A DNA stretch of 63,691 bases, counting the filler, from Reclinomonas americana ATCC 50394 (Eukaryota): NCBI GenBank assembly GCA_048213135.1. It is 15 parts of 13 records of this genome, joined end to end, with 100 filler letters (N's around TTAATTAATTAA, not from the genome) between each part and the next. Parts side by side here need not be neighbours in the genome. Positions count along the whole stretch, not along the records: positions 2,511 to 3,544 come from AFZH01016487.1; positions 3,645 to 4,952 come from PS016029.1; positions 5,053 to 12,345 come from PS016029.1; positions 12,446 to 15,045 come from AFZH01016490.1; positions 15,146 to 27,354 come from PS016030.1; positions 27,455 to 30,651 come from AFZH01016493.1; positions 30,752 to 37,617 come from AFZH01016494.1; positions 37,718 to 41,652 come from PS016031.1; 7 more parts are not named here. One strand, 5' to 3'. The first letter of the stretch is position 1, and each line of letters begins with the position of its first letter. Positions 2,511 through 44,999 of the stretch are shown here, one piece after another. The notes beneath the pieces were generated by a model. That model was not told where the DNA came from, ran no database searches, and saw only the letters and a list, made by a program, of their open reading frames with translations. The position numbers and the translations under genes were made by a program.

Positions 2511-3794
2511 CGAAGGGCAAGGAAGGGGAAGGGAGAAGGGCGAAGGGCAAGGGCGAAGGGGAAGGAAGGATTAGAGGACGGGAGAAGGGGAAGACAAAAA
2601 GAAAGAGAATGCGAAAGGAAGGGGTAACGAAGAACAAGGAGAAAGGAAGGTGACGAGGAGAAAGAGAGAGTGAAGAGGAACAAGAACACGAATGAAAACA
2701 ATGCAGTGGATGGGGGCGAAGTAGAGCAAGGAGGTGGAGCAAGACAGCTTGACCGACTGCATACGAGTGAGGCTGAGTTTGTGGCAATGCTCACAATCCT
2801 CATCAACAATCCTGTTCCTTGTCTCCAAAGGCAGAGTTCGGAGCAAAGAGTAAGACTCACTCTCACCCACCCAGTTATACATCTCTCTCTCTCTCTCTCT
2901 CTCCCCTCTCCTCATTGAGTTGTCTCACTCGCACCCATACAAACAACACAACTCTGTGGATATATGCCGAACTCATATCCTTCTGCCACTCCTCTGCAAC
3001 TCTTGCTTTTCTCATGGAGAGGGCCAAGACTCTCACTCCCACCCACCCAGCCTCTCAAAAAATGGATGACAGAGTTCGCGGCGAGTTGTCTCACTTCCTT
3101 CAATGTCAACAATATGACTCTGGATACACGATGAACTCATATCCCTCTGCCATACCTCCGCAACTCTTGCTTTTCTCATGGAGAGGGTCAAGACGCTCAC
3201 TCCCACCCACGCAGACCAACAGCACATCTTTTCTTCTCACTCCCTCTTATCATCTCATGATTAACAGAGTTCGCGACGAGTTGTCTCCCTCCCACGACCT
3301 CATATTCCTCCTGCTTCTCTACATCTACCATAATTCTCGCTTTTCTTATGGAGTGATGCAAGACTCTCACTTCCAGCCACCCAAATCAACAGCACAACTC
3401 TCCCTCTCCTCGTCCTTCTCAACTAATGCACAACAGCTCGTGGAGATGAGTCTCACTCCCTCCCACCATATCAACAACACACATCTGTGGGTACATGACG
3501 GTCTCGTGTTCCTCCTCCACAACTCTCCTCTCTCCCTCTCTCTTNNNNNNNNNNNNNNNNNNNNNNNNNNNNNNNNNNNNNNNNNNNNTTAATTAATTAA
3601 NNNNNNNNNNNNNNNNNNNNNNNNNNNNNNNNNNNNNNNNNNNNAGGACGAATAGAAGGATGAGGAGGAGAAGGACGAATAGAAGGAGGAAGAGAACAAG
3701 CAGCAGAGGAACATGGAAGAGGAGAAGAAGAATGAGGAGGATCAGGAGGAAGAGGAGGAGGGGACGAAGAAACTCATGAGTGCTTGAGCGCAAC

Positions 3795-4092
3795 TTGCAC
3801 GAGTTGTCCGTGTCGAAAGCCAAAGGGTTCCAGCACCACATCACTGATATCAAACTCTTTCATTTGCCCGCTCAGCGTCCTGTAGCTGATGGTCTGTGAA
3901 GAGGAGAAGAGAGTGAGAGAGTAATGTGAGGAAATCACAGTGACTGATTGAGCGAGTCAAGGCCAAGCGCCAAGAGAGGGCCTTCTCACTCCTCACTCGC
4001 TCTTTTGTGTGTGTGTGCGTGTGTGTGTGAGTGTGTGTGTGTGTTTTCGTGACAAAGAGTGCTCTCTGCCTCTGTTCCACACTCACCGGCAT
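3795..4092 (-). CDS. 5' part of an uncharacterised protein (MP|TISYRTLSGQMKEFDISDVVLEPFGFRHGQLVQ|...)
   Basis: ATGCCG|GTGAGT at 4092-4087, acceptor CACAG, then a 99-nt exon 3893-3795 and donor GTTGCG. Truncated by the gap. Confidence 0.6.
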
Positions 4093-4763
4093 CCTTCCAT
4101 GCCTTCCAGACACTCACACAGCTATCGTCCACTCACGTGCACTCTCTCACTCACGCACGCGCTCGCCGACTGACAACTCGAGTGATTTCCCGCCCACTCG
4201 CGACGTCGCGGTCCTGTACCGAAAAAACGCATTGTATTCACCAAAACGAGCGCGTGGAGCCACAGAACTCGTTGTGCCGCATGGCGGGGTGCAAGTGCGT
4301 CGATGTGGCAGTGCGCACAAACGAATTGCATTTTTTCTAAGAATTTGATCATGATCAGCATGCACAGCGCGCTCAACGGGCAGCAGGCAGCCTCTGGGAA
4401 CATAGTGTGCTTGCTGTATCTTGCTGCAATGCGCACGCAGTCAGTGGAGATGGAATTCAGAGCCAGCGGCGATGTCGAGCTTGATATCGAATGCGCGACG
4501 TCGACGCGTTATTGCTGACAAGCAAGCAATACACGCTGCAAACGCGTTGGGAAACGAAGGAAGGCGAATTCTTTGTGTATTCAAAGCCGTGGTTTCTACT
4601 GCAGGGTCGCTAGACCAACCTGAAGTTGCGATCGATTTTGCGGGGTTTCGTTGCCTGTGCTTGCCTCCGATGCTGAGCACCATGCAACTGCGTTACAGCA
4701 CCATGAAGTCCTGGGCTACGCCAGCCAGCCCGCGTTTGCTTGGCTTGCCTCCTGACAGGAAGA

Positions 4764-4815
4764 TGTGGGCGTTTTCCGCATTATTGGAATGTGGTGAATG
4801 AAGTGTTTTGTTTTG
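4764..4815 (+). repeat. Dispersed ~40-55 bp element (CGCATTATTGGAATGYGGTGRATGAAGTGTTTTGTTT), copy 1
   Basis: Near-identical to 16782-16820 (+) and 15998-16050 (-). Confidence 0.85.
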
Positions 4816-5052
4816 GACTTATGTTGGTCATTGTCGGGGCGGCTCTCACTCAATCACCACAAAAAAGGAAAGCAAAAAGGCGGGAAAACAAGTCAGCAAC
4901 GGTTGTCAACTGTGTGGCAACGACAGCTGCAGGGGAGGGGGTGCAAGGGCAANNNNNNNNNNNNNNNNNNNNNNNNNNNNNNNNNNNNNNNNNNNNTTAA
5001 TTAATTAANNNNNNNNNNNNNNNNNNNNNNNNNNNNNNNNNNNNNNNNNNNN

Positions 5053-5113
<61 letters not shown>

Positions 5114-6141: not shown

Positions 6142-8681
6142 TTATCCAAAGTTGATTCCCTGCGCCAGCGGAAGCGTCGAGCCGTAGTTGATGGTGCTGT
6201 GTGCGATGCAACAAAGTGTGAGCGAGACATATGCGTTCGTTCGCTTTTTCTGTTTCAAAGAGCACGTACCACGTGCTGCGTCGCATGTACTGCTTCCACG
6301 AGTCGCTGCCGCTCTCGCGGCCGCCGCCAGTCTCCTTCTCACCGCCAAAGGCACCGCCAATCTCCGCACCCGACGTGCCAATGTTGACGTTGACGAGGCC
6401 GGCGTCCGAGCCGTGCGGGCCAATCCACTTGAACGCGGCACGCATGTCTGTCGCCCGCACACCCCCCACAGCACGTGAGCCGTGTGACAACATCTCAACT
6501 CAGGGAACAGCAAGAACGAACCGCGAGTGAAGATGGCACTGCTGAGGCCCTGCGGCACCTCGTTGTTCATCTCAATGGCCTCGTCCAGCGTCTGCAACAC
6601 ACGCACACATGCGACACAGTTCAATACGTGCACATACACACACACACGTCCACGCCCCACGTGACGGGAGACGCACCGTGAACTTTTGCACGTGCAGAAT
6701 CGGCGCAAAGATTTCGATCTTGACAATCGGCATCTCGCGGTTCGTCTCCACAATGCACGGCTCCACAAAATTACCCGGTCGGTCCATGGTCTATCACAAA
6801 CGAGTGAGTCAGAAAAGCGACGACAAACAAACATGAATCCCACCCCCGACTCGTCTGCAACCGTCTCCCTTCTTCACACACCTTGCCACCAATCAGCACA
6901 CGGCCGCCCTGGCGCTCAATCTCCTTGATGCCGTCCAAGTACTCCTGCACCGCGGCCTTGGTGTGCAGCGGGCCCAGCAGGGTGCCGTCCGCCAGCGGAT
7001 CGCCAGACGGAATGGTGTGGTAGGCAGTCACCAGGCGCGACACGACCTCGTCGTACACATCGGCGTGGATCAGCAGACGGCGGGTTGACGTGCAGCGTTG
7101 GCCAGCAGTGCCCACGGCGCCGAAGAGGGTGGCGCGGATGACCAGGTCCAGGTCGGCGTCGGGCATCACAATGATGGCGTTGTTGCCTGCGGGAAGCAAA
7201 AAATAAATAGTGAGACACCCTTGCCTCTCTCTACAACACATGCGTGTTGTCCACGAACCGCCGAGCTCAAGAATGGTGCGGCCGAAGCGCGAGTGCACCT
7301 GGGTGCTCACACGGCGACCGATCTGTTCGAGGACAAATCACTGAGCTCGGAGAACCAAAATAAACAAAGAGGAAAGCACACGGACCTCAGTGCTACCGGT
7401 GAAGGAGATGAGCTTCAGGCGCGGGTCGCAGATGATCTTCTCGCCGACCTCGCGGCCAGAGCCAATCACCACCGAGGCGATGGCGCCGGGCAGGCCGTTG
7501 CGCTCAAACACCTCACCGACCAAACGGCCGACGGCGCACGTCACGAGCGAGGTGGTCGAGGCGCCCTTCCTGTATCCAGCAACACAGGAGTCAGATCACA
7601 CGACGGAACACGAGAAGAAAAGCTATCGACACGCACCATACTTGGACGTTGCCGCACACCAGGCTGATGGCAGCGTTCCAGGCGAACACGGCTGTGAGCA
7701 AAAGGCGCGCATGTCAGCGAGGTTGATGCGCGGACAGAGAAAAAAAAACACGTCAAAAACGAACCGCACGGGAAGTTGAAGGCCGAAATGATGCCAATCT
7801 ACACAAAGGAGAGTGAGCACCCAAGAGCGTCACTCTCTATCATTACCGAGTCTCTGCTCCCGTTGTCGTGCTCACCTTGCCAAGCGGGTTGTACATCTCA
7901 ATGATGGTGTGCTCCGCGCGCTCCGACGGGATCACCTGGCCATTGATCTGGCGCGACAGGCCCACGGCGAAATCGCAGATATCGACGGCCTCCTGCACCT
8001 CGCCCTTGCCCTCGGGCAGAATCTGCGTTGCACAAGGGCGGGAAGTGAGTCGCACGTAAACAGAGAGGCAATGTCTCATTCCACACACAATGGTACCTTG
8101 CCCATCTCCAGCGAAACGAGCTTGGCCAGCGCCTCGTGCTTGGCACGGAAGGCCTCACCAATCTGGCGCACAATCTCACCACGCTTCGGCGCCGGGTACT
8201 ACACACAAACAGGAAAGAGAGAGAGAGAGGTGAGGCGACTTCCGACGCAATCACATGGTCACACGACGCACCGCCGCCCACATCTTCTCGACGTCGTCCA
8301 TCTTCTGCAAGACACGCTCGTACTCCTCCGACGACGCACCACGCACGCGGGCAATCGGCTTGCCGGTGGTGGGCGAGTAGGAGGTGATGACGGCGCCGGA
8401 GCCGAACCACTCGCCATCGTAGGCACCCGGGTTCTCCTCCTGCAGGCCCAGCTCGGCCAGGAAGGGGTACTCGTGGAATGTCAGAGGCTCAGATGCTGCC
8501 ATGGTGGATTGGTAACGCTGCACATGGAACAGGGATCTGCGCATGAGTACAAGGGAGAGAGGGCATGCACACAAAGTGGAGGAGGAGTGTGAGACAGAAG
8601 AGAGTGTGCGAGAGAGACAGACCGACAGTCACACCTTCGCAGTCCCGTCGCGAAGACGCCGCCACCACCGATGCGCAGCAT
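6142..8681 (-). CDS. ALDH7A1: Aldehyde dehydrogenase family 7 (antiquitin / aminoadipate-semialdehyde dehydrogenase), 13 exons, with N-terminal mitochondrial-type presequence
   Basis: Motifs [40 protein letters not shown] (catalytic Cys), [39 protein letters not shown] and [14 protein letters not shown]. 12 GT-AG introns restore the frame. Confidence 0.97.
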
Positions 8682-12171: not shown

Positions 12172-12245
<74 letters not shown>

Positions 12246-12582
12246 CGACGACGACGACGACGACACGACCGACCACACAGTACGACGTAGGTAGTAGTCG
12301 ACACGACGAACGAAACGAACGAAACGAACAAACCAAAACCAAACCNNNNNNNNNNNNNNNNNNNNNNNNNNNNNNNNNNNNNNNNNNNNTTAATTAATTA
12401 ANNNNNNNNNNNNNNNNNNNNNNNNNNNNNNNNNNNNNNNNNNNNACCGGTACGTCGTACGTTACGTACGTTCGGTACGTCGTCTTTCGTTTCGTCTTTG
12501 GTTAGTAGTGTTCCTACCGTTACGTCGTCGTACGTACCTCCTCGTTCGTCGTCGTCGGTACGTACGTTACGACGCGTCGCGC

Positions 12583-12655: not shown

Positions 12656-14748
12656 CGCAACGTGAGCATCGCCACACATGCAGGTAGATTGCATCGCGAA
12701 AGCAAAGAGCAACAAAACTCCAACAAAATGGATGCCCGTGGCTTGCCACCATGTGGAGGGGCCACTCGGAATCCGTGTCCACCATGATTTCATCACAGGC
12801 ATCTGCGACACGGAAGTTATGAGTATCACGACTTTGTGTGCGCAAGACAGATGAAAATAAGAAAGAAAAAAGAAAAAAGAGAGGGCGCGTGAGTGCGTTC
12901 TGCTTTACCTCGCCCAGCTGCGCTTGCGGCGTCTGGTGCAACTGCAGACGCATTGCTGTCGTCGGTGCCAAGCCTCGACAGGGATACAGCCAGTTGTTCC
13001 ACCTGGTCATGCTCGCACTGACGTTGAAATTGGTGCTGGTAGTCCTTGATTGCAACTCGCAAGAACGGGAGCAGGTGTCCGAACAGGACTATCTCACAGG
13101 CAGCCTCCGAACTGAGAGAGCAATCAACTGCCGGTCGACACGCATACGCGTCAGTACACAGTACACACACAAAATGGCGCAGCAATGGAATGTCAACAGG
13201 CGACGCACAGCGGTCAAGTAGTTCGGGCTGAAGTTCAGCTAGCCCCACCAGAACAGAACGAATCTTCTTGCTCATCGGCGCCGCAGATCTTTTGGGAGTG
13301 CACCAGAAGTGGCCAAACACAACAACGTCGGCAGGTGTGATGAGCGTCATAAACTCGCACGTGAATGCAACAGCGCGTGCACTGCACAAGGAAAGAACGA
13401 AAACCAACGCAACTCGGTGCCGGGAGTGGCCGTGACATCGATCATTGCAGCCGTGGAGACGAAGCGGAAGCACTCATCGAGTGCCTTCTGAACTCGGTCA
13501 GAGCGACGCATACCGTCCACAACAAACACAAGCGGTTCCGCGTGCAGCGAGGAATCATCGGAGCGCAGGTATCGAAATGTGTCGTACGCAGTCTTGTTCA
13601 GCGACGACATTAGCCCTGGGGGGATGAGTAAGAAAGAGAGAGAGAGAGAGAGAGAGAGTGAGACTGTGGAAACATTGACACCATCTTGCAGCACCTGCCC
13701 CGTACCTCGGCGAAGACACTCCTCCAGCCGATAATCGAGCGCATTGCCATCGGCTTCCTCCTTGCAGCGCCGCATGTACTCAAAGAAGTTGCACACCGTT
13801 TGCTTCTCACGATGAACTTGGCGCGCAAGGAGCACGCCATCAATAGTTTCCCACACGCGTGAGGCATCGCCATCTTCGTGGTCGACTGTATGCCAGCGCG
13901 CACCACACGTCAACACCTCGCACTTACAAGCAAGCACACGCAATCACACACGGACCGAGGACATCCGGATCCTCAACGTCCACCGCCGCCGCCGCCGCTG
14001 ATGGCTTCACCCCCATGCGCTGATATTCGGCGTACAGGCCACGCAAAGTTTCCTCGTCGCCTGCAACGCCATGTTCCTGCAGCATGATTACTCGTTCCAG
14101 AAGCTGTTGCAGCGGATAGTCGGCGGTGCTCGTGACTGACTCCGGCAAAGTCATGATTGAAGTTCGCAGTCGCGCTGCGTCACTCCTGACTGCGGGAGTG
14201 TGAGAGCGTGGGGAGGAAATGATTTCGACAAGAGAGAAGAAGCGAAGCGAGTGATGACGCTGATACGCACATACACACACACACGTACACACACCTTTGA
14301 TATCAGGGTACTTGACAAGAATGGCGTCTAATGCCTCCTCGATCTGCTCCAGCTCAGCCTTCGCAAGCGCAGCTGAGTCGTCCGTGATCTTGACACGCCT
14401 CACTGAAACTTGGAGATGGAACAGACCCGAGTGAAGTTCATCATCGGAATCAAGACACTCAATTGCAAAGGCGCAAGTAGCAGCACTGAAGACGCGAGAC
14501 GTCAACATCTCACGCTCAGCATCCAGCTGCGTGGCTGTGCGAAGAGAGCATGAACACGCAAGCACAAGCAATGTGTGAGTCAGACACACACGCACACATG
14601 CACAGAGAGAGAGAGAAAGAGAGAGACCAATATGCAATGCGTGCGTACCGGAGAACTCGACTGGGGCGGAAGAGCCACTTGCCATGCTTGCCTGGCAAAT
14701 AACAACGTGAGGTCGTCTCACAGCAAACATTACAAGACTCCAAGCCAT
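9749..14748 (-). CDS. Multi-exon protein: unknown N-terminal region + PD-(D/E)xK nuclease-like segment + non-RD protein kinase (Crinkler/CR-like architecture). It spans a gap and may extend to about 15940.
   Basis: Kinase motifs IIMKD, NEA, HGDVKPSNVL, LIDFG, GTRGFM|APE, SDVYSAG and RITAAEALQHEVF. Upstream KPDVCI...FFIECK and a helix like AVIHLYVV. The kinase is certain; the exon model and continuity across the gap are less so. Confidence 0.7.
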
Positions 14749-14897: not shown

Positions 14898-15164
14898 CTA
14901 CTACCTACCTACTACTACTACTACTCTACGTGTGTGTGTCGACTAGTGTGTACGAACGAAAACGTAAAAGTACGAACAAACGTAGGTAGGTAGGTTATTT
15001 CGTTAGTTAACTTAACAATAACGACTATAACGAACCAACAGAACGNNNNNNNNNNNNNNNNNNNNNNNNNNNNNNNNNNNNNNNNNNNNTTAATTAATTA
15101 ANNNNNNNNNNNNNNNNNNNNNNNNNNNNNNNNNNNNNNNNNNNNCGTCGTCGTCGTCGACGTC

Positions 15165-18996: not shown

Positions 18997-21816
18997 TCAC
19001 GACATGTGCGCCGCGTCCACCATGCCCTTGAGTGCCCAGTGTCGTGCGACGCTGGGGTTGTCGCGCAGCTCGGTGATCACCAGCGCAATGAACTGGTCGA
19101 CCGGCGGTCCCAACTCGTACGTCCGGCTGACAAAGTCAATCGCATTGCGCTCGCACACGGCATCGTCGCCATTCGGTACTTCCTCCGCCAGCAAGATCTC
19201 CATGGCTTGTACCAACACCGGTGCCGTCTGCACCATCACAACACGTGAGCGGGAAAATAAGCAGAGCACAATAGGGTGTGGCTGTGACGCAACAGGGAGC
19301 ACGTTGGCGCGCAGAATATCAAAGAAGCGCAGCAACACTTCGGCGGCAAAGCGGCACACTGCCGGATCGCAGAGACCAACGTAAAGGAACTCGCGCAGGT
19401 CGACAAAGATCTTGCTCCACACCGAGATATCGTCGGTGGACACGGGGTCGGAGATGCAGGCCAGCAGAATCTCCCAGTGCACCAGCTCCAGGTTTTGCAA
19501 CTCACTCGCAAATACCTGCACGCTCCACAGTCAGTCCACACAATGGACAATGGAGAGACGAATGGAACACACAACGCACCACATCGCGCAGCTGCGTGCC
19601 GACTTTGATGTTGTCAAAGTATGGCCTTATGTGCACGATTTCGTAGACGCACACTTGCGTGGTGACCAGCTGTTCGCCTTCGGGGTGTGGCGACAGCAGT
19701 GAGCGGCGGACCTCGATCGGTGAGTCGACCAGCAGCTGAATGAACGGCTCGTACAGGGCAGGGAAGTTGTCGAGGAACGGCGCGAGCTCCGAGAGGGCTA
19801 CGGTTGTGAAGAAATGAGTAAAGAGAACTGGGGAGAGGGGGAGAGGGGGAAGGGGGAGTGCTCTCTCACCAATTTTGGAGAGAATCGGCGGTACAGCGCC
19901 GTCAATCGACGCCAGCAGCACATCCGTCACCTTCTCCACGTCTTCGGCGCGACCCAAATGTTGCATCTCCTTCATCAGCGCGAGGCACGTGCGCAGCACT
20001 TGCACACGCACCTCCCACCACTCGTCGCTGGTGAGCGTGGCCAGTCGATCTGCGACGACAGAGTCAGTAAGGGAAAGAGAGGACGACAGGAAAGAGGGGA
20101 AGAGAGAGAATGGGTGGACAAGACGGAACGAGACATCAGCACAAACAAGAAGTGACACACAATTATGCTTGCTTGGGGGAAAAGTGGAAAATATAGACAA
20201 CGAGCGAGGGTAACAGTGGAGAATACAGACGAGCACGTACATGACAAGAAATATTATTTCTGGCTCCGGAAGACGAGAGTGGAGACGTAGACAGCGAGAC
20301 AGACGAAAGTGACGAGACACATCTTCTCTGGCTTGCCAGGTAAGAGGCAGTGATTGCGCGCACAGAAGACAGAGGAGAGACGACGAACAGGCACGCGCGC
20401 AAAGGTGATGAGACACACATCTTCTTTGGCTTGAAACACACAGCGCGCGTAGGCGAGACAAAGGAGACGCGAAACGAGATGATGAATGGCAAGGAGCACA
20501 TAAGTGACAAAGAAATGTCACTCTGGCGTGAGAGACAGGATTGGAGACGTTTAGAGCGCTCTGAGAAGTAGCTTGAGAAACAAGAGCGAAGAAGCCAAGT
20601 GAGTCCAACAGAGAAAGATACGAGGGTGACAGAGGAGGAGAGAGCCAGAAGCACTCTGTGTGTCAACAACACTCACCGAGCATCTTGAACACCAGATCGG
20701 GATTGTGATGCGCAATGTGCGGCAGCATCGACACAGCGCCGGCGCGCAACACCGGCGACGACATGGTAAAGCCGATAACGCAGTAGAACACGTACATGTC
20801 GATGAGCTCAGGCGAAAAGTCCTCTTCCATGTGCGACAGTGCCGTCAGGCAGTGCAGGAACGCCGATTGGTTGTCAATGGTCTCCTGCAGGCTGCGAATG
20901 GCTCGCATGTGGGCGCTGAAATCCGACGCGCAGTAGCTGTACATGATGCGCATGAGGGTGCGGCGCCGGTCGGGGAACTTGAAAATCACGGGCCGGAATC
21001 GCGGCAGCGCAAAGTCCTCAAACAGGCTCCACGCGGTACGCGAGTCGCGAGCACACAGGCTGCGACCGACTTGCACAAAGAGAGAGACGGCCTCTGTGCG
21101 GCGTTGCGGAAGAGAGGTGAAGTGAGCAGGAGATGGTCGCGGAGGCTGAAGTATGAGCAACACAACACACACCGTTGAAGCCGGGCTTGTCGGAGACTTG
21201 GCCGAGAAGCACGCCAAAGATGGACACGAGCTTCCAGAACTCCTTGGGCGCGCGGATGCAGGATTCGGTGATGGCGCTCACCTGGGAGGGGGGAAGAAAG
21301 GAGGAAGGAGAGAGGGAGGAGAAGGAGGGGAAGAGGAAGGGGAAGGGTGAGGGGAAGAGGGGAAGGGAAGGGGAAGGGTGAGGGGAAGACGGGGAGGGGA
21401 AGGGGAAAGGGAAAGGGAAAGGGAAGAAAAGGAGAAGGGGGATGGGGAAAAGAGAAATGGAGAGAGAAGGGTGAGAGGGATGGGAGAAGTGAGGAAACAC
21501 GAAGAGGATGGGAAAAGGTGCGAGAAAAGCAGAAATGGGAGAGCGTGCGAGAGAGTGAAGCCAGAGACTTCGACTGCGTAGGCAGAGACAGACAGGCAAA
21601 CAGAGATGGAGACACACACACACGGGCAGATAAGTAGACAGACAGATAGTCAGCCGGATAGACAGACAGACAGACAGACAAGCAGACAGACATGGATAGA
21701 AAGAGAGAGGGAGACAGCATAGGAGAAAGAGAGAGAGAGAGAGAGAAAGAGAAAGAGAAAGAGAAAGGGAGAGAAGAGAGAGAAACAGACAGAAAGCCAG
21801 CCAGCAAGACAGACAT

Positions 21817-25500: not shown

Positions 25501-25724
25501 CTGTGTGTGTGTGTAAGAGAGAGAGAACGAGTGAGACACAACAATCATGAGAGAGAGAGAGCGTGTGACTGACCTCTTCGGGTTCTTGACACTGAAGCTG
25601 AGATCGAGGCTCTGTGTGCACACACACATGAGTGAGTCACACAGTCACTCTGTGAGTGTGTGTGTGTGTGAGTGAGAGAACGTGCCTGCAGCCACTTCAG
25701 AATCTCTCGAGGCACTGCCGACAT
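18997..25724 (-). CDS. SPATA4/SPEF1-type CH-like domain protein with a long helical C-terminal region
   Basis: MSAVPREILKWLQ|SLDLSFSVKNPKR|DFANG|MLIAECLSRYYPSDIQM|HSYDTGLSLQRKLDNWAQLERFF matches the SPATA4/SPEF1 CH-like domain. Downstream exons join in frame to the TGA at 18997. The model requires three GC donors. Confidence 0.88.
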
Positions 25725-26680: not shown

Positions 26681-29740
<3,060 letters not shown>

Positions 29741-30651: not shown

Positions 30652-30777
30652 NNNNNNNNNNNNNNNNNNNNNNNNNNNNNNNNNNNNNNNNNNNNTTAAT
30701 TAATTAANNNNNNNNNNNNNNNNNNNNNNNNNNNNNNNNNNNNNNNNNNNNTCTCGTCTTCCTTCCGTCCTCGTCTT

Positions 30778-30829: not shown

Positions 30830-33800
30830 CTCCGTCAGTCTCTCTTCTCTACAATAGAAACTTCACTGATCCATACACAACAATGAGCATCTACCAGTGA
30901 TCGCCAACAAGTCTCGTGTGCTTTCCTTCTACAACTAAAACTGTTTTAAGTGTGTTGTCGATGTTGAAGAATAAAGCCCTATTCAGGACACACAGCCTCC
31001 AGGCCAAAGAAGACTTCGTCAGCAGTGACCACTAGAAGACGTCCCTCCCTCTTCCTGTCTGTCGCATTCCCTCCCTCCCTCCCTCCCTCCTCTCTCTCTC
31101 CCTCCCCCTCCCTCCCTCTCGTACACACACCTTGGTCTTGCGTTGCACCTCGAGCTTCTGCAGCAGACGATCGGGATTCTTCACATCCAGTCGGAACTTG
31201 CTGTTGGGAATCGGCGTCGAGTGAATGTGTGGCCGGAACGTGCACTCCTGCGAGAGCTCCGCATTGACGGCCTCGGCGACCTCCTGCTTGATGATCTTGG
31301 CGCGCTCATTCGACACGAGCTCGTCCAGTGAGCTGGGGCGACCAATGGCTTGCGAAATGCGGTTGATGTTTGGCTTGAACTAGATTTGAAGAGAGAAGCG
31401 CGTGTAAGAGAGGCGAAGGGGCAATGGAGGGAGGTGGGGTGAATAGAGACGCAACAGAAAACTGTTGATAATAACTCTCCTGCTCACAAAAACAACGATG
31501 GGCGAAATGATGAGATAACGAGAAGCATCGCGCGACTGCTGCGGCGAACAACGCAACTGCAATACTCTCGCGCAACGCCTCGGTGCGCTCGCGGTCGTGG
31601 AACGCCAGTCTTTCGACCACATCCTCCTCGCTCTCGCCGTACCGACTGATCTTGCTGCTGACGAGAACCTCGCTCTCCCGGGAGATTTGCGGCTTGAACG
31701 TGAGGTCCTCGTCCACCGTCTCGTGCTGACGCTGCCGTTTCCGTCGCTCGTACGTGTTCTGTCGCTCCAAGAAGTCGCGGTTGGCGCCCGCAAACAGGTC
31801 GCTCTCTTGCACAATGCGCTCGCTGGTCGGGTTCACCGACGGCGCAAAGGTGCAGTCCTCGCGGAGCTTGCGCTCGTATTCCTCTTGCTTGCGGAGTTTG
31901 CGCTCGTAGACCGCCGCCTGGCCGTCGTCGAAGGAGCGTGACATGCGTTCGGTGATTTTGGCGGAAGTCTGCATGGGGGGAGAAGGGGGGAGAAGGGGAA
32001 GGGTGAGGGGGGAGGGGGGAAGGGGGAAGGCGGTGAAGGTGAGGGGGAGGGGGGAAGGAAGGGAGAGGGAAGAGGGAACAGGACCGGCGAAACTGACGAT
32101 GGGAGCGGAAAGAGACAATTTGAGACGCTCGTCACACTGCCGCTGAGAGAAAGATAACGCAATAGACAAGAGACGAGAGAGAACGGACGACAAACGCGGC
32201 TAGGGAGCAGAGCAACAAGGCGCTTGGCTCTTGTACCACACCCTGCTGCTTCGCCAGAGTCACAGCATTGAGGTAGAACTGACGGCAGACATGGGAAGGA
32301 GAAACAGAGAAAGAGGAGATTGTCACTCCATTCCCGTGCTGCCGCGATACGACAGCGCAGGAGGACCAGAAATACGAGAGAGAAGGAGTGAATGAAGACA
32401 AACGTGGCACAGGAGCAGAGCAAGGCGGCGCTTGTCGCTTGTCTCACTGCTGGTTCGATAACGCAGCACCACAGATAGACAGAAAGAGAGAGAGAGAGGA
32501 GGCACAAGGAACGGCAGACAGGCAGACAGCGAGAACAAGAGACGAGAATTACACCAAATGAAAGACAGGAAAAGAGAGAGAGAGAGAGAGAATGAAAGAC
32601 AGAAATGAAAGCCTCTATCTTGCCAGGGAAGCAGGTGAGTGTCGTCGCGTCAAACTCACCGGATTGAGTTTCGGGCTGAACGTCAGGTCGGGATTGTTGT
32701 ACTCGTACTCCAGACGCATCTTGTGCAGCTTTTCGCTCTTTTCTGCTCCCCCGAGGCGCGTTGGCGAACAGGAATGCACACACTGTGAGGCACAGAGAGA
32801 CGACAAACCTCGCTGCAACTCGCCGACTCGCTCGTGCGGCGGCTTGTACGAGGTGGGATCAAAGAATTGCGGGTTGACGCGCACTTGTGGCTGGAAGCTC
32901 AATTGCTGCACCAGCTGCTCCTCCTCCGCACGCTTCAGACGATCGCGCATCGCCGCACGCCTGTCTGCCTCGTGGTGCAGGCGTTCGGTGAGCGGCAGCT
33001 GCTGCCGCAGGACCGCCATGGCAGAGCGCTTCTGCGCCGAGCCGAGCACAGCCTGCAGACGATAGAGTGAGCCAGACACACCAGAAAGCGACCGCTGCGC
33101 GAAAATCACAACGCAACGGCTGGCACTCGCGTGTTCACGGCCGGCTTGAATGTGCACTCTTGCTCCAATCTCTGCCGCTCCGCCTCCAGACGCTCCTGCT
33201 CGCGACGGCTCAACTCCTCGCGTCGCGACCGCGACAGCGCGGCAAAACGCTCGCCACGTGTGCGCGGACCGCCCTGCTTACTTGACGAGTGTTCGTTGAT
33301 CTTGGGCGTGAATGTGCACTGCATGAACTGTGGGTAAGCGACATGTCCAGTGTCGTCGACAACGACAACTCACGTCACACAAACCGTGCTCTTCTCTTCC
33401 TCCTCCAGCTGTCGCGCAATGAGTTCCTTGCTCTTGCGACTGGGCTTGAGCTCGCTCGAAGCGAAGCGGAACTCCTCCACACGAGTCACCCGACGGTCGC
33501 CGCGGTGCGACGGCGACTGTGGCCGCGCACCCGACGAGTATCCCGCCGACCCGTCACTCACCCCACTGCCGGCAGACACAGAGCGCGACGGTCGACCACT
33601 GTCGCCGTTGCTCTGAGCGCGGCGGTGCTGCGGTCGCGAGGCGCGCTTCTCATCGTCGTCATCCAACTGCGATTGCACACGGCGATGTGGCTGCTGACGC
33701 TGCGGCTGTGGCTGCTGACGTGCCTGTGCCTGCGGTCGTGCACGTCCTCGTGGTTGCTCCTCGTCCTCATTGCCGCCGTTGCGATAGTAGCCGCCACCCC

Positions 33801-36456
33801 GATCATCGTCGTCGTGATCACCGCGCTCCTCGTCCTCGTCTCCCACATCATCGTCGTCGTGATGTCCCACCGCGGCACCTTCCTCCTCCTCCTCGTCCTC
33901 CTCTTCCTCCTCCTGTCGACTGTCGTCATACGGCGCGCCACCGTCATCGTCGTCGTGCGGCTGGTAGCGTGAACGACGTGAGCGCTCAATGTACGCATCC
34001 TCCACATTGGGCTCGCCTGTCGGAGGATGGAATGAGAGAATACCATGAAGATCTCTTGACAGCAAATGAACCAACCGTCGGCGTCGTACGTCGGAACCCC
34101 CGAGCCATTCGGGTACCAGCTCGGTCCTCCGTGCGCGGCAGGCGCCGCCGAGGGTGCGGAGCGCTGTGATTGGGGAATGAGGAGACATAAAAGCAGGCGA
34201 CTGTGTGATGACAGAAGAGCATACCCTGTCAGCAGCGGGCGGATCCTGCCAGGCCACGGCTGCGGAGCGTCGCGAACCCGGTGAATTCTGCGCATGACGG
34301 TTGGCATAGTGGCGCAACGATACAGACGAGAAAAGGGGTGCACACAACGGCTTCCGACGGAGTGGTGGAGGTGGTGGTGGCGGTGGAGGCCAGCGGGCGC
34401 TGAGAGGCGGCAGCAGAGGCCGACACACCGCCCTTTTGCTGCTTGTGCTGCTCGCGAAGCCGTGACACTAGCTCTTCCTTTTTCGAGTCCTGCAGACGAG
34501 GCCGGTAGTCTCGTGGTTGAACGGCCAGCAGCTCGGCACTGGCGGCCAGGGCGTCTGCGGAGGTGTGAGCGAGAGAAGGGATGGCGAAGAGAGAGAGAGA
34601 GAGAGAGAGAGACATGAGGAGGACCTTGTGATGGGAGAGCGCGAGCGGCAGCAGCAGGGGATGGACCGCCTCGCACGGTGGCGCCGAGTCCACTGCTCGA
34701 GGGGGCCGCGGAGTTTAATCGTTCCATGGCCTCCTGGCGACGCGTGTCCTGTGGCGCGGGAATGAGGATCGGGAGATGAATAGAGAAAGGGTGGTGTGTG
34801 AAAGAGCTCACCGACAGGCGGGAGGGTGAGCCGCGGCCACCACCGGAGGAGGAGGCGGGGGAGGCGGAGGCGGCGGCGGCGGCGGCGGCGTAGACGGCGG
34901 AGGGGGCGGGGGTGGGGGTGGGGGTGGGGGTGGGGGTGGGGGTGGGGGTGGGGGCGGAGCGGGTGGGTCCTGGGGGGAAGGGGGGAAAGGGGGGGAAAGG
35001 GGGAAGGGGGAGGTGAGGGCGAAGGGGAGGGAGGGGGAGAAGCAAGGGAAAGGGGGAGAAGTGATTCGGTAGAGCAGAGAGAACGCAGAAGAATGAGTGA
35101 GGGAAAGTTGTTCTATGGACGTGCATGCGACGTGGTAACACGGCCTGTGCCACTCACCACAACGCACACACGCGATAAGAGAGAGACAGAGACAACGAAT
35201 GCGCTTCCCGCTCGCGGCAAACGCAAATCACAATTCAATCATGCATGATCATCGCCCCCGTCGTCATTGTGGCGCGAGACCAAACAAACAAGCAACATGA
35301 AGTGGCGGAAAGAAGGACAAAGAGAAGATGTTGAATTCTACATGACGAGCAGAGAACGAAGAGAGCGAGCGAGGCGTAAAAAATTGAAAGCGTTCCCACG
35401 ATCGCTGAGGACGAAGGGCAGATACAGACGCAGCTGGGACAGATGCATTGAGATCGAGTGCAGAGGGAGATAGAAGCTGACGCTGTGAAGCGTGGACTCC
35501 GTGCGTGCGAAGAAGAGAGCGTGAGACTGCGAGAAGGAGAAAGTGTAGCGCGTCCAACATGTGGCATTCACACAGAGGGAGCGAGAGAGACAAGCTGAGG
35601 CCATGAAGCACCGAGAGACGAAGGATAGATCGTGCATGAAGCACTGACAGCGAGAGAGAGAGAGAGAGAAACCGAGGCCGTGCTTGAGGGCAAGTGCATG
35701 GGAAGGAGAGCATGGGAAGGCGAGAAGGAGGGACAGTAATGCATCCAGAGAAACCGAAGTTGTGTACACAAAGAGAAGGAGATTAGGAGAACGAGAGACA
35801 CAAGATGAGTGTGAGAATGCGAGAAGGAGAGACAGTGAGGCATCCAGGGTGAGAGGCAGAGAAGTTGTGTACACAGAGAGAAGGAGAACGAGAGACACAA
35901 GCTGAGCGTGAGAATGCGAGAAGGGGAGACAGTGAGACATCCAGGGTGAGAGTTAGAGAAACCGAAGTTGTGTACACAACGGGAAGGAGATCAGGAGAAG
36001 GAGGGACACAAGCTTAGCGCGAGAATGCGAGAAGGAGAGACAGTGAGGCATCCAGAGATCAGGAGAACGACAGACACCAGCTGAGCGCGAGAATTCGAGA
36101 AGGAGAGACAGTGAGGCATCCAGGGTGAGAGGCAGAGACAGTGAGGCATCCAGAGATCGGGAGAACGAGAGACACAAGCTGAGGCTAAGAAGCACAGACA
36201 TCGTGTGCACGCGAAGGAGAGACTCCAGTGGAAGGAGAGGTTCCCTCTCTCACAGGCACTCACCAGCCACCGGAGCCTGCGCACTCAACAACCTATTCTC
36301 ACTCTGCACTTGAGGCACAGTCACAGGCACTGCTGCTGCTGGTGGTGCTGTTCCTGGTGTTTGCTGCTGGGCAACTCTCAATGAAAACATGTCGCGTTCC
36401 AGGTACGACTCGCACAGACGGATCTGAGCTTCCACTTCCTCGAGAGTCGAGTCCAT
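29894..36456 (-). CDS. Large coiled-coil protein with repeated (E/D)CTFxPx(I/V)N motifs (TPX2-like repeats, probably microtubule-associated)
   Basis: Repeats QCTFTPKIN, ECTFKPAVN, LTFSPKLN, DCTFAPSVN, LTFKPQIS, FSFKPNIN, ECTFRPHI, GCTFKPDT and VCTFAPKTN, plus IVIRGFGRHLERQ. First coding exon MDSTLEEVEAQIRLCESYLERD; stop TAA at 29894. Confidence 0.75.
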
Positions 36457-37617: not shown

Positions 37618-37725
37618 NNNNNNNNNNNNNNNNNNNNNNNNNNNNNNNNNNNNNNNNNNNNTTAATTAATTAANNNNNNNNNNNNNNNNNNNNNNNNNNN
37701 NNNNNNNNNNNNNNNNNTTTGTTAG

Positions 37726-38240: not shown

Positions 38241-40356
38241 TCACGATGCACCCACACCACCAATCCCTCCTCCCCCTCCGCCCACCTCCTCCGCCCGCAC
38301 CAAGTGCAAATGATAAAACACTTGCTGCTTCGGGTTGCGCGACTGAATATCGGCGAGGAAATTGAGCGGCGGGTTGCCGAGGAACATGCCGTCGTACAGC
38401 GACCGCTCCTGCCACACGCATACCACATCGTCAGCACTTTCCCTCCTTTCCCTCTACCTCCCTCCCACCACACGCACCTCCAAATCCTCCAAATTCTCAC
38501 TGTGCAACACCGGCTGGTAAAACATCGGGCTCTCCACCAGCGTGCCAAACGGGAACTTGGAGCCCGGCTCCCACCGCGTCGTCGCCTCCGACTGTGGGGG
38601 CAACGACATTCCTCCTCCTCCGCCCACGCCCACACCCACCGCCATGGCGGCAATGGGCATCGCCGCCACGTCTGCGCTGCGCGACCGTCCAGGCGGGCGT
38701 GGCGGAACCGGACTCGGCGATAATCTCTCGCGCTTGCCGAGTCGCGACGAGTCGGTCTGTGACAATTTCTTCGAGTCAGATCAATCGTCATCATCGCGCC
38801 AATAGTTAGAGAAGCTGGCACGCAACAGCATCCACGGATTTCCGGCCTGGTCTCGGGCGGCCAACCTCCTCCCCCGACGGCACCACCTCGCTCTCACTTT
38901 CGCCGCGCCGTGCCCGCGCTCCGGACTTTCGCGCCGACGCATCGTCCGACACAGTGGCATTGCGCCGGCTGCTCGGCGCTCCGACTCCACCGCCCTGCAG
39001 GCGCACCTTCAACACGCGACCGCTTTCGACCGGCTCCGCCATTTTCACGTCGACCGTCCGCGTGGCCTTGCCACTCTTGTGATTGTCCACACCATTGGCC
39101 TTGCCATCCTCGCCGTCATCGTCTCCGTCCTCCTGCTCCTCTCCCTCTCCTGCCCCCTCCTCCGCCTCCTCGTCATCGTCGTCCCCGCCAATCGCCGACT
39201 GTGACTTGCGTGGTCTCAACCGCGTATGAATGCCGACTCGAGCGCGCGTGGCTCCGCCGCCGCCGCCGCCGCCACCGCTGCCGTTGCCACCATCAAAGTC
39301 CGCATCGCCCATGGCCACATCCATCGCCTCGAGCCCACTGTCGTTGGTGCCGGCGGTGACCGACAGGTCGGAGCGCGTCGAGTCCACCGACCCAAACGTC
39401 ACGCGCTGCATGCGGAAGCGCGACTGTTGTGGGTGTTGGAGAAGGAGAGCGGGGGGTGGAGGCGGCTGCCGCGTCGATCCGTGTTGCTGCTGCTGCTGCT
39501 GTTGTAGCAATTGCTGTTGCACGTGCTGCACGTGCGGATGCTGGTACTTGTACGACGACACAACGTCCAGTGCGGCGGCAGGCGGCGTGCTGGCCACCAT
39601 TTCTGTGCGGGACGACAATGCATGAGAATTCATGAACACGAGAGAGAGAGAGAGAAAAAACGAGTGCACGGACCTCCCGCCACTCGCGCCGTCGGTGTGC
39701 CCGGTGCCTCGCTACCGGAATCAGCGGGTGGCGTGGGCGCCACGGCGGCAGTGCCTGGCGTGGCCGGACTCGCAGCGGTCGGCTGCCGGGTACGACGCCG
39801 CGAGGACGACGCCCCGGCCATGGCGCCGACTCGCAGCAGTTTCGAGTCCGAGTCGGCGGAGGGATGGCGTACTGCGACCGAGAGAGTGAGAGGCGAAGAG
39901 ACATTCAAAAGGGGGAAACCGAGCCACTCAACTGTGCAGCGTTGCCGGCAGGACCATTGGCAGCAGCGGCGGCGCAGTGTGCATTGCATCACTCGACGTC
40001 TTGGCTGTGTCCGAGGCCGACGACGCCGTGGGCGTGCCGGCGGGCGTGATGGAAGTGGTGCCGTTGGCATTCGTCGGCGTGGTGGCCGTGTAGTGGCCCG
40101 TGGCGGGCGACGCGGCGCTCACCGAACCCGTAGCTGGCGAGCGAAACGCCACGCTCTGCGAGCTGACCACGCCGACGGTCGGCGTGGTGGTGGTCGTCGG
40201 CGCCATGGGCGACGGCGGTGACATGGTGTCCATGTACTGCTGGTAGCTGCTGTCGGTGGCGGAGCCCTCGTCGTCCTCCGTGGCCGGGTCGCCCTCCTTG
40301 CGCTTGTTTTTTCGCCGGCGGTTTTCGAACCAGATTTGGATGCGGTTTACGTTGGT
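38241..40356 (-). CDS. Homeobox transcription factor, 3' part (helix 3 + long low-complexity tail); upstream exons not found
   Basis: TNVNRIQIWFENRRRKNKRK is a recognition helix, followed by poly-Q, poly-G and acidic tracts. Introns restore the frame to the TGA at 38241. Confidence 0.8.
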
Positions 40357-41513: not shown

Positions 41514-41551
<38 letters not shown>

Positions 41552-41652: not shown

Positions 41653-41768
41653 NNNNNNNNNNNNNNNNNNNNNNNNNNNNNNNNNNNNNNNNNNNNTTAA
41701 TTAATTAANNNNNNNNNNNNNNNNNNNNNNNNNNNNNNNNNNNNNNNNNNNNTGTCTCCCTCCCTCAC

Positions 41769-42052
41769 CGATTGGCCAATGTGGATCGCAGCAGAATCGG
41801 CCACACCTCAAAGTAGTCGGCCACAAAGAGGGCAAGGGCGACCCAGAACACGCGGCTCAGCACGTTGACAATGTATGCCACCCATGAGACACTGGCAGCT
41901 GCGTTGCCAGCAGCTCCCGCGCTGCATCCGAGAGGGTGAGTGATGGGGGATGTTGTTATGTGAGTGTGTGCACACACGCGCCTGTTGCTGGTGGCGTCGT
42001 TTGCCTCGGCGTTGCGACGTTCGGGGGTGATGCGGCGGGGTGGGTCGTGCAT
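41769..42052 (-). CDS. 5' part of a small membrane protein, TMEM128-like
   Basis: MHDPPRRITPERR...|...VNVLSRVFWVALALFVADYFEVWPILLRSTLANR|GTGAGG. The FW-hydrophobic helix-D/YF...NR pattern recalls TMEM128; the family call is from memory only. Confidence 0.55.
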
Positions 42053-42192
42053 GGTGGGGGATCGAGACAAGTGAAGGACGACTCGATCGGAAGAATGCAG
42101 GACAACTGCCTCCGCCCGCGCGCCGGCTTCTGCAACGCAACTTCGTTCCCTCTTCTGCATCTCACCGACCACCGAGCTCCTACTATATCATC

Positions 42193-44999
42193 ATGAGCGA
42201 CACCCCGTCTCTCGTCAGTTGCGAGCCTTCACACACACACTGCACACCAAAGCGCAACACTCATTCCCTTCCTCTCTTCCTCAAGTTGACAATGGCTCCG
42301 GTGTGTGATCACAACAATCACAACTCCCTCTCTTACTCTCTCTCTCTCTCACTGCCTCCCCATTCTCGCCTTTCTTGAACATACAGACAAGTGCAAGGTG
42401 CTTACCTCCCCGCCGCATGCATGCACAGAGCTGTACATTCTCATTCACCACTCCTCCTCACGCAGGCCGGCTTTGGCGGCGATAAAACTTTGCGTGCCGT
42501 GTTCCCTTCGGTCGTGGGCCGGTGAGTGCTCCCTCCCCCTCTCAGCCACCATTATCGATTTCCTTGCGTCTTTTATTGAAATCTCTCTCTCCCTCCCTCC
42601 TATCCCTCCCCCTCTCCCCTCCAACAGCCCAAAGCACCCGGGCAACGGCATCAAGGAAGTCTACGTGGGCGACGAGGCGCAGGCCAAGCGTGACATCCTC
42701 GCGCTACGCTACCCCATTGAGCGCGGCATTGGTGAGTACGAGCACCGTCCCTCCCCGCGGCCCATCATGTGCGTCTCACTTCCGTCCTCCAATGCGCAGT
42801 GACCAACTGGGACGACATGGAGACGCTCTGGCACCACACATTCCACCACGAGTTGCGTGCGGCCCCGGAGGAGCACCGTGTGCTGCTCACCGACGCGCCA
42901 CTCAACCCCAAGGAGAATCGCGAAAAGAGTTGCGCTCCTGTCCGCCCCTCCACCCGCTCTCTCTCTCTTCTCACTGTTTTTTTTAACGCAGTGACGAGCA
43001 TCATGTTCGAGACCTTTAACGTGCCGTCCATGCAGGTTCGGATCCAGGCCGTGCTGTCGCTGTACTCGTCGGGCCGCACCACCGGCGTTGTGGTCGACTC
43101 GGGCGACGGTACGACGAGCTGCGTGCAGATCTACGAGGGCTTTGCGCTGCCGCATGCCATCCAAAAGGTGTTGCTGGGCGGTCGCGATCTCACCGAGTAC
43201 ATGATGAAGGTGTGTGTGTGTGTGTGAGAGAGAGGGAGGGAGGGAGGGAGAAGGGAGGGAGAGGGAGAGAGAAGCGCGAGGGCTTGGTGGTGAAAGAGCA
43301 AGAGAACTCTCTCTCTTTCTCTCTCGTGCTTCACGTTTTCAAAGCTTTTCTTCTGCTGTTTGCGTTTCTCTCACCAGCCTCTCCTTCTGTGCGTGAGAGA
43401 GAGAGAGGGAGAGAGAGGGAGAGAGAAGGGCAAGGACTTGGTGGTGAACGGGCAAGGGAACTCTTTCTCTCTCTCTCTCGTGATTTACGTTTTTAAAAGC
43501 TTTTCTTTTGCTGTTTGCGTTTCTCTCGCCAGCCTCTCCCTCTCTTGTACATGTGCANNNNNNNNNNNNNNNNNNNNNNNNNNNNNNNNNNNNNNNNNNN
43601 NNNNNNNNNNNNNNNNNNNNNNNNNNNNNNNNNNNNNNNNNNNNNNNNNNNNNNNNNNNNNNNNNNNNNNNNNNNNNNNNNNNNNNNNNNNNNNNNNNNN
43701 NNNNNNNNNNNNNNNNNNNNNNNNNNNNNNNNNNNNNNNNNNNNNNNNNNNNNNNNNNNNNNNNNNNNNNNNNNNNNNNNNNNNNNNNNNNNNNNNNNNN
43801 NNNNNNNNNNNNNNNNNNNNNNNNNNNNNNNNNNNNNNNNNNNNNNNNNNNNNNNNNNNNNNNNNNNNNNNNNNNNNNNNNNNNNNNNNNNNNNNNNNNN
43901 NNNNNNNNNNNNNNNNNNNNNNNNNNNNNNNNNNNNNNNNNNNNNNNNNNNNNNNNNNNNNNNNNNNNNNNNNNNNNNNNNNNNNNNNNNNNNNNNNNNN
44001 NNNNNNNNNNNNNNNNNNNNNNNNNNNNNNNNNNNNNNNNNNNNNNNNNNNNNNNNNNNNNNNNNNNNNNNNNNNNNNNNNNNNNNNNNNNNNNNNNNNN
44101 NNNNNNNNNNNNNNNNNNNNNNNNNNNNNNNNNNNNNNNNNNNNNAGAGGGAGGGAGAGGGAAGCGCAAGGACTTGGTGGTGAACGGGCAAGGGAACTCT
44201 CTCTTTCTCTCTCGTGTTTCACGTTTTCAAAGCTTTTCTTCTGCTGTTTGCGTTTCTCTCTTCAGCCTCTCTCTCTCTCTGTGCATGTGTGTGTGAGAGA
44301 AAGAGGGAGAAGGAGAGAGAAGGGAGAGAGAAGCGCAAGAACTTGGTGGTGAACGGGCAAGGGAACTCTTTCTCTCTCTCTCTCTTTCTCGTGTGTGAGT
44401 GCGCCCACTCTTTCGTGTCAGTTGCATCTCTCTGAACGATTACATGCCTGCAGCTGCAGACAGAGTGCGGCCACAACTTCACGTCGTCGGCCGCCGACCG
44501 CGAGATCGTGCGTGACATCAAGGAGAAGCTGGCGTACGTGGCACTCGACTACGACGCCGAGCTGAAGTGCTCGGCGTGTGAGACGACGTACGATCTGCCA
44601 GACGGGCGCGTCATCACTGTCGGGACGGAGCGCTTCCGCTGCCCGGAGGCGCTCTTCAAGCCGTCGCTCATGGGCATGGAGCACGATGGCGTCGACGTCA
44701 TGACCTTCGACTCCATCGAGCGCTGCGACATGGACATTCGCAAGGACCTGTACGGCAGCGTGATGCTCTCGGGCGGCAACACCATGCTGCGCGGCATCGC
44801 CGACCGCCTGCAGAAGGAGCTAAGCCTCCGCGCACCGCCAGCCGTCAAGGTCAAGGTGGTGGCGGCTCCGGAGCGCAATAAGTCGGTGTGGATCGGCGGC
44901 TCCATTGTCGCCTCGGTGTCGTGCTTCGAGAGCGCGTGGGTCACCAGGGCCGAGTTCGAGGAGTCCGGCGTGAGTATCGTGCATCGCAAGTGTTTTTGA
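42193..44999 (+). CDS. Divergent actin / actin-like protein, 8 exons
   Basis: [108 protein letters not shown] and IVHRKCF-TGA. Confidence 0.95.

Follow-up and report, generated by a model that had tools for sequence, protein, structure and literature searches.

Introduction

Pairing of the U1 small nuclear RNA (snRNA) with 5′ splice sites in shifted or bulged registers is known from human genes as a rare exception. Shifted-register 5′ splice sites of human genes were reportedly described by Roca and Krainer in 2009, and bulge registers are said to have been set out by Roca et al. in 2012. In ordinary 5′ splice sites, exon and intron compensate for each other: where G is missing from position -1, which ends the exon, the signal on the intron side is stronger. 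U12-type introns have their own donor motif (RTATCCTT) and branch motif (TCCTTRAY). Here we describe the 5′ splice sites, or donors, of a stretch of 63,691 bases of Reclinomonas americana DNA (the window), which is eukaryotic and intron-rich and has a G+C (guanine plus cytosine) content of 53%. Its introns begin with two kinds of donor: a G/GTNNGT-like main class (C-type; the slash marks the cut) and an offset GTTG(C/T/A)G class (S-type). The offset, and its link with the base that ends the exon, is real in this window and far above chance.

In the human shifted register, as in the reading proposed here, the U1 pairs are displaced by one position, the first G of the intron stands in the place of the exon G at -1, and the cut is before GU (PMC4856993, PMC9311317). 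The shifted test oligonucleotide in Table 2 of PMC4856993, ACA/GUCAAGUAUA, has CA before the cut, as is also seen here, and tens to hundreds of human sites are predicted for each noncanonical register (PMC4856993). However, human shifted sites are rare and pair well with the standard U1, whereas S-type donors account for 7/27 checkable introns here, are tied strictly to a non-G exon end, and do not pair well (mean -1.0 kcal/mol). Sites with a bulge or asymmetric loop (Tan et al. 2016, PMC4856993) resemble the S-type in having an extra nucleotide between GU and the paired block, but they keep the AG/ exon pairing (PMC4856993), whereas here no G is found at -1 and the bulge register comes first at none of the sites.

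The C-type has the same unusual consensus as the donors of the Mamiellophyceae, G/GTGCGTG with C at +4: AG/GTGCGT in Micromonas (PMC3879977) and GTGCGTG in Ostreococcus, where the authors raised the possibility of snRNA changes (PMC2483917). The accessible text of the two papers makes no mention of a GTTGCG class, and the window genes analyzed here are far more intron-rich than those of the Mamiellophyceae (PMC2483917, PMC3879977). The intron side of the S-type is displaced by one base, with C at +5 and G at +6 against G at +5 and T at +6, and is not the strengthened hexamer of ordinary compensation. Like U12-type introns, S-type introns have a rigid donor motif and do not require G at -1, but the motif is not RTATCCTT, and their branch-like motif and pyrimidine tract resemble those of the main class. 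Full-text literature searching found no published GTTGCG or GUUGCG donor class, although a description within a genome paper may have escaped it.

Results

Positions of the cuts

Junctions were scanned with profiles built from 12 homologs of ALDH7A1, 8 actins and 112 homologs of RNF113A/CWC24, and all in-frame, stop-free GT-AG alternatives within about 36-40 nucleotides (nt) were scored. This gave a checkable set of 27 introns (7 S-type, 19 C-type and 1 GC-AG intron after G) in four genes:

42193..44999, plus strand: actin-like gene; 7 introns, 2 S-type and 5 G/GTG-type; includes an 11-nt micro-exon
27938..29737, plus strand: RNF113A/CWC24-like gene with zf-CCCH and RING domains; 4 S-type donors, 1 G/GTTCGT donor and 1 tail candidate
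24520..25724, minus strand: 5′ part of a SPEF1-like gene; donors G/GCACGT (GC-AG), G/GTCAGT, A/GTTGCGT and G/GTGAGA, from reading frames and Pfam CH_2
6143..8517, minus strand: ALDH7A1-like gene; 11 checked introns, all G/GT

All 26 checked GT-AG junctions have the termini of U2-type introns, with one GC-AG intron in addition, and removal of the introns restores frame and homology. The actin-like gene fixes the cut before GT, as had been claimed in a preliminary description of this DNA: the donor at 42218 has no compatible rival and that at 42929 is far ahead of its alternatives, and neither junction can slide because the flanking bases differ. Six of the seven actin-like junctions rank top; the exception is intron 7, which sits within a GT repeat, spans an N run and has a 1.1-bit ambiguity. 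In the RNF113A-like gene the G/GTTCGT junction is unambiguous. All 12 ALDH7A1 introns had been said to follow an exon G and to use unshifted donors, and this holds for the 11/11 that are checkable, each of which ranks top by at least 4.4 bits (GTGCGT and GTTCGT three times each, and GTACCA, GTGAGC, GTCCGT, GTGTGT and GTACGT once each). The SPEF1-like frame reads M..LKWLQ / SLDLSFSVKNPKR / DFANG / MLIAECLSRYYPSDIQM / HSYD..., its short exons presumably matching the SPEF1 family, and positions 21-41 of the Pfam CH_2 profile fall on the open reading frame (ORF) of exon C and positions 41-96 on exon D, which fits the junction at 25483. A homolog search with the SPEF1-like exon gave no match.

Homology thus places the cut before GT at six S-type sites (two in the actin-like gene and four in the RNF113A-like gene, including two ties), with partial support for a seventh at 25483. 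The part of the observation that can be checked against genes is confirmed, and most of the remainder is plausible; that there is a second donor class, cut before GT, is very probable.

Two gene finders served as controls. The motif-blind finder, a generalized hidden Markov model supplied only with codon statistics, GT and AG, is noisy. The signal-aware finder takes its donor scores from intron positions only, so that the -1 base has no influence. Automated scoring of the best acceptor is unreliable for short exons and was used solely for open-frame and stop counts. All 19 S-type sites that had been put forward carry the motif ascribed to them on the strand given: 15 are GTTGCG, 3 are GTTGTG (24519 and 34348 on the minus strand, 28139 on the plus strand) and 1 is GTTGAG (39932, minus strand). 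With one addition, the sites are:

42218..42224, plus strand: A/GTTGCGA, actin-like intron 1 (68 nt); sole in-frame GT-AG donor; yields ..LVIDNGS..
42929..42935, plus strand: A/GTTGCGC, actin-like intron 6 (63 nt); top by 27 bits; also in the motif-blind model
27989..27995, plus strand: C/GTTGCGT, RNF113A/CWC24-like gene (80-nt intron); top of 6 variants by 2.1 bits; also in the motif-blind model
28139..28145, plus strand: C/GTTGTGT, RNF113A-like gene (68-nt intron); 4.5 bits over T/GTGTAC 3 nt downstream; also in the motif-blind model
28337..28343, plus strand: A/GTTGCGC, RNF113A-like gene (57-nt intron, in-frame and stop-free); 322.5 bits against 322.3 for T/GTGGCA (a tie) and 305.3 for retention
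28684..28690, plus strand: A/GTTGCGT, RNF113A-like gene (66-nt intron); 322.5 bits against 322.7 for G/GTTCCA (a tie); read-through meets a stop after 9 codons
25477..25483, minus strand: A/GTTGCGT, SPEF1-like (CH_2) gene (71-nt intron); joins a 17-nt exon to the next as ..RDFANG/MLIAECL..; partial Pfam support
31551..31557, minus strand: A/GTTGCGT, repeat-motif gene (78-nt intron); frame logic; the signal-aware model uses this donor with a longer intron
31449..31455, minus strand: T/GTTGCGT after a 24-nt exon (76-nt intron); the junction ..QQFS/FKPNIN.. restores the (C)TFKPxI(N) repeat of the gene
33111..33117, minus strand: C/GTTGCGT, repeat-motif gene (65-nt intron); read-through meets a stop after 4 codons; in the motif-blind model
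38820..38826, minus strand: T/GTTGCGT (70-nt intron); open frame of 294 codons before the cut, stop 7 codons past it; in the motif-blind model
39926..39932, minus strand: variant A/GTTGAGT (61-nt intron); long open frame upstream; read-through meets a stop after 1 codon; in the motif-blind model
29115..29121, plus strand: candidate A/GTTGCGT, C-terminal tail of the RNF113A-like gene; motif only, in an unconserved acidic tail with an uncertain acceptor
19287..19293, minus strand: candidate T/GTTGCGT (66-nt intron); signal-aware model; the motif-blind model joins the same acceptor to an in-frame donor lying 9 nt further upstream
23106..23112, minus strand: candidate T/GTTGCGT (intron of about 69 nt); stop 13 codons downstream; frame reopens past a CACACAG acceptor; no homology
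24513..24519, minus strand: candidate A/GTTGTGT after the CH_2 exon; ambiguous with T/GTGTGT 3 nt downstream; putative acceptor
34342..34348, minus strand: candidate C/GTTGTGT (185-nt intron); ambiguous with T/GTGTGC 3 nt downstream
13407..13413, minus strand: candidate A/GTTGCGT, 32-nt intron; frame restored; atypical length
3788..3794, minus strand: candidate A/GTTGCGC; an exon-like ORF stops 7 codons on; no acceptor before the contig end
11949..11955, minus strand: additional candidate T/GTTGCGT (86-nt intron), outside the 19; signal-aware model only

Apart from the intron at 13413, the modeled S-type introns are 57-86 nt long, with one of 185 nt, and the two-intron model around the 24-nt exon (31557 and 31455) has introns of typical length, 78 and 76 nt.

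The last base of the exon

The bases before the cut at the 19 S-type sites are A in 11, C in 4 and T in 4, and never G, just as the preliminary description had it. Within the checkable set, where the association between the -1 base and donor class was tested, G stands at -1 in 0/7 S-type and 19/19 C-type donors (Fisher p=1.5e-6); without the two tied S-type junctions the same test gives p=2.4e-5. On both strands the window contains 48 GTTGCG motifs, only 1 of them after G; a maximal-order Markov model expects 6.7 occurrences of GGTTGCG, and for AGTTGCG it expects 9.4, against 18 observed.

The motif-blind finder places GTTG(C/T)G at 5/73 of its donors, against 1.06 expected from the share of this motif among all GT sites (p=0.004). 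Inclusion of GTTGAG raises this to 6 donors (p=0.002), and all six are among the 19 sites. The GTNNGT donors of the same finder follow G in 11/16 cases, compared with 144/1093 for all GTNNGT sites.

Composition of the two donor classes

The 19 C-type donors have G at -1 in all 19, G (11) or T (4) at +3, C (11), A (5) or T (3) at +4, G at +5 in 17, T at +6 in 16 and G at +7 in 9. In the 19 S-type donors, T at +3, G at +4 and G at +6 are invariant; +5 is C in 15, T in 3 and A in 1, +7 is T in 15 and +8 is G in 8. The consensus is G/GTGCGTG for the C-type and /GTTG(C/T)GT(G), most often after CA, for the S-type. The one-base superposition that had been proposed is therefore exact at this level, since positions +3 to +8 of the S-type, TGCGTG, equal positions +2 to +7 of the C-type. 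After a move of one base the two classes coincide from the first G through TGCGTG, save that the S-type has U where the C-type has its G at +1.

The exon side was compared with a background of 5.6 kb of verified coding sequence. In the S-type, A is found at -1 in 11/19 (background 0.176, p=1e-4), C at -2 in 11/19 (0.247, p=0.002) and the dinucleotide CA before the cut in 5/19 (0.039 expected, p=7e-4), and G at -1 is found in 0/19 (0.266 expected, p=0.003). The S-type CA/G resembles the classical CAG/ with its G supplied by the intron, which fits a shifted register and does not fit a bulged one. In the shifted register C at -2 would face G11 of U1, A at -1 would face U10 and the intron G at +1 would face C9, whereas a looped-out U would call for AG/. 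By eye, the two classes have similar lengths and 3′ ends, with CTCAC, CTGAC or TTCAC branch-like motifs, a CT-rich tract and YAG.

Pairing with U1 snRNA

Forced duplexes were calculated between donor positions -4 to +10 and the 5′ end of U1 in the canonical register, the register shifted by +1, and a register with a bulge at +3. The standard U1 5′ arm is ACUUACCUG, and the 5′ end used was AUACUUACCUG, as printed in PMC4856993. Modeled alongside it was a hypothetical U1 whose positions 5 and 6 are G and C and whose arm is complementary to G/GUGCGU. Mean values in kcal/mol are:

Standard U1, C-type (n=19): canonical -6.6; shifted -0.25; bulge +3 -3.5
Standard U1, S-type (n=19): canonical 0.0; shifted -0.99; bulge +3 -0.44
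Hypothetical U1 (G,C at 5-6), C-type: canonical -9.2; shifted -0.25; bulge +3 -3.6
Hypothetical U1 (G,C at 5-6), S-type: canonical 0.0; shifted -7.2; bulge +3 -5.2

With the standard U1 the canonical register is the best in 19/19 C-type donors, and it gives 0.0 kcal/mol in 19/19 S-type sites. With the hypothetical U1 the shifted register is the best in 19/19 S-type donors. The bulge register is the best of the three in 0/19 S-type sites with either U1.

Other features of the window

Several observations concern the genes and donors discussed above. The micro-exon of the actin-like gene (42387-42397, plus strand) is 11 nt long, ACAAGTGCAAG, and is needed for ..GSDKCKAGF.. This divergent actin paralog shares about 60% identity with ordinary actins in its last exon, and its search matches, many of which are multi-actin fusions, are at most 64% identical. 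The first intron of the SPEF1-like gene appears to be a GC-AG intron (25684-25685, minus strand), CTGCAG/GCACGT...CACACAG/AGC, which has the main consensus save for C at +2. The RNF113A/CWC24-like gene has the most offset donors in the window, 4, or 5 with the tail candidate. Activated spliceosomes have RNF113A/CWC24, a splicing factor, in contact with the 5′ splice site, and the richness of its gene in offset donors is probably a coincidence. The putative 32-nt intron at 13382-13413 (minus strand) is about half the usual length in the window, a frameshift error in a draft contig being an alternative.

The gene at 30982-33324 (minus strand), which has no Pfam match, encodes at least 5 copies of (C)TF(K/R/T)PxI(N/S/H), one of them split by an intron. 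The gene with A/GTACGC at 5859, a proposed exception to the -1 rule, shows no recognizable homology; G/GTTG models near 9957 and 15755 had been put forward as exceptions as well. The two WD40 paralogs at 54247-55413 and 57598-58766 (minus strand) have a common conserved start region, GAGAATGGCAACAAAG/GTGTGAA, which suggests a 12-nt first coding exon followed by a G/GTGTGA donor. The ab initio models start elsewhere, and the first exon ATGGCAACAAAG/GTGTGA is at least as plausible as the modeled one. Two small repeat families on the minus strand, ctcgcc..cgt/GTTG(C/T)GTGTCTTCG (60928, 61351, 61649) and agtgtgga.agt/GTTG(C/T)G (26427, 26567, 26606), raise the count of GTTG(C/T)G motifs; their use as donors is not demonstrated.

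Pfam searches of stop-to-stop ORFs found an ALDH family protein, a protein kinase, PQ-loop, CH_2 (SPEF1-like), zf-CCCH with RING, an actin-family protein and two WD40 proteins. The nearest homolog of the RNF113A-like gene, a Paulinella micropora EukProt entry, is 60% identical, and that of the ALDH7A1-like gene is 63% identical; there are 13 metagenome loci, with identity of at most 61%. The window contains no snRNA gene at Rfam gathering scores and no transfer RNA gene according to ARAGORN.

Fourteen identical linkers, each composed of 44 N, TTAATTAATTAA (with stops in all six frames) and 44 N, interrupt the window:

First seven linkers: 2411-2510, 3545-3644, 4953-5052, 12346-12445, 15046-15145, 27355-27454, 30652-30751
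Last seven linkers: 37618-37717, 41653-41752, 45718-45817, 48074-48173, 49651-49750, 60671-60770, 61840-61939

There are also three longer N runs. The linkers and N runs indicate that the window is a chain of small contigs, so that genes on either side of a linker need not be neighbors in the genome. The interval 48001-52000 has a G+C content of 0.41, against 0.48-0.60 elsewhere, and includes two contig joins and a run of 988 N.

Discussion

The two donor classes are best understood as one signal with an offset of a single base, the first G of the intron taking the place of the G that otherwise ends the exon. In the S-type, U stands in the place of the usual G at +1, and the conserved U-G-C-G-U-G block lies one base further from the cut. 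The likeliest reader is a single recognition helix, formed by the 5′ arm of U1, which would bind both classes in one frame, and the catalytic spliceosome would then cut before whichever GU is present. We lean slightly toward this explanation as a whole, with two kinds of donor as one displaced signal read by one U1 helix; the single-helix, shifted-register mechanism taken by itself we would rate a little short of an even prospect. U1 would be the reader of both classes only if its positions 5-6, or another factor, match G at +4 and C at +5, because the standard U1 hardly pairs with them. One tentative form of the proposal, which we regard as distinctly open to doubt, is that the U1 5′ arm has changed to an ACGCACC-like sequence matching G/GUGCGU, so that a single helix is read in either of two cut registers according to the base that ends the exon, and about a quarter of introns use the second.

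The same sequences might be read with a bulge, U1 and later U6 pairing with GU and GCGU in the usual frame while the additional U, at +3 or else at +2, loops out of the helix and the exon end takes no part in pairing. GTTGCGT is indeed GTGCGT plus one T, +2/+3 bulge registers are documented in human with 68 predicted sites (PMC4856993), the hypothetical U1 still pairs favorably in this register, and pairing of U6 past a fixed GU needs a bulge under any model. A bulge nevertheless predicts that G at -1 and A at -2 are kept or strengthened, whereas G is absent at -1 and C at -2 with A at -1 is preferred, and neither U1 model puts it first among the three registers; we consider it rather unlikely. 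GUUGCGU might also be matched in the normal register by a reader of its own, either a protein factor or an additional U1-like snRNA, so that two recognition systems would run in parallel. In favor of this are the S-type core, much less variable than that of the main class and scarcely complementary to the standard U1, and the expression of variant U1 genes in human (PMC3561869). However, such a separate reader leaves the exact one-base superposition and the CA/ preference unexplained, the 3′ ends and lengths are alike in both classes, and the idea is unlikely. The CA/ preference favors the shifted register over the bulge; of the explanations considered, it accounts best for the data, and it needs a nonstandard U1 or another reader.

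The offset donors could also be an artifact of modeling, the GTTGCG motifs lying by chance near real donors and the true cuts being at other GT dinucleotides, or the introns being retained. Two RNF113A-like junctions are tied, the intron at 28337 is in-frame and stop-free, each GTTGTG site has a rival donor at a distance of 3 nt, and several of the 19 introns lie outside any homology. Set against this are the two actin-like junctions, the five-fold enrichment of the motif by the motif-blind finder, and the presence of the same 7-mer at frame-compatible positions in unrelated genes with typical introns of 57-86 nt, which make an artifact very unlikely. Mobile introns ("introners") that carry their own GTTGCGT end and insert after non-G bases would account for the uniform 5′ end, and Micromonas has introner families with characteristic donors (PMC3879977). 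However, an all-versus-all blastn comparison of 17 modeled S-type introns gave only CT-rich matches of 8-13 nt, none with E<0.1; the S-type introns have no common body sequence and so are not copies of one element, and we give this origin next to no weight. Two further candidates were rejected. U12-type introns do not fit the GTTG(C/T/A)G donors and the 3′ ends that resemble the main class, and a hairpin between the 5′ end and the intron body (GTTGCG with CGCAAC) is found in only 1/7 S-type introns.

A number of points weigh against the shifted register and the rule of the last exon base. The sample is a single 64-kb window of joined contigs, and every junction call rests on protein homology or frame logic; at 2/7 checkable S-type donors (28337 and 28684) another donor scores virtually the same and the motif decided the choice, and all three GTTGTG sites have an in-frame T/GTGTG alternative 3 nt downstream. 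The absence of G at -1 from the 19 sites, compared with 16/123 unclaimed motif sites, is not significant alone (p=0.13). Outside its training genes, the signal-aware finder uses 8 GTTG-type donors, 1 of them after G (56864), and 26 GTNNGT donors, 15 after G and 11 after other bases. Taken at face value these ab initio models suggest that the -1 rule may not be absolute; they are in part demonstrably wrong, for example in missing the short exons of the SPEF1-like gene. In the C-type, -3 is C in only 2/19, so that the S-type CA/ preference is not simply that of the main class moved by one base. Not only are the mean S-type energies with the standard U1, listed above, close to zero, but 9/19 S-type donors have no favorable pairing with it in any register, and 400 random GT sites do better (mean -2.08 kcal/mol for the best of three registers). 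S-type donors that pair worse than random GT sites need a changed U1, a changed U6 or a protein factor. The earlier suggestion that the first G of the intron stands in for the missing exon G keeps the superposition and the CA/ preference on its side, but has to contend with a standard U1 that pairs poorly in every register tested; the variant U1 or U6, or special factors, that it named as a possible need become a requirement. The phrase "major splicing code" goes too far, its basis being 7/27 checkable introns in one window.

If the shifted-register reading is true, an offset register that is a rare exception in human genes would be used by a large share of introns, under a rule set by the last base of the exon. 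Gene finders that use a single donor matrix would then get roughly one intron in four of this genome wrong. The genome would offer a natural system for the uncoupling of U1 binding from the choice of the cut by U6, U5 and Prp8, and for the coevolution of the near-invariant 5′ end of U1 with the splice sites.

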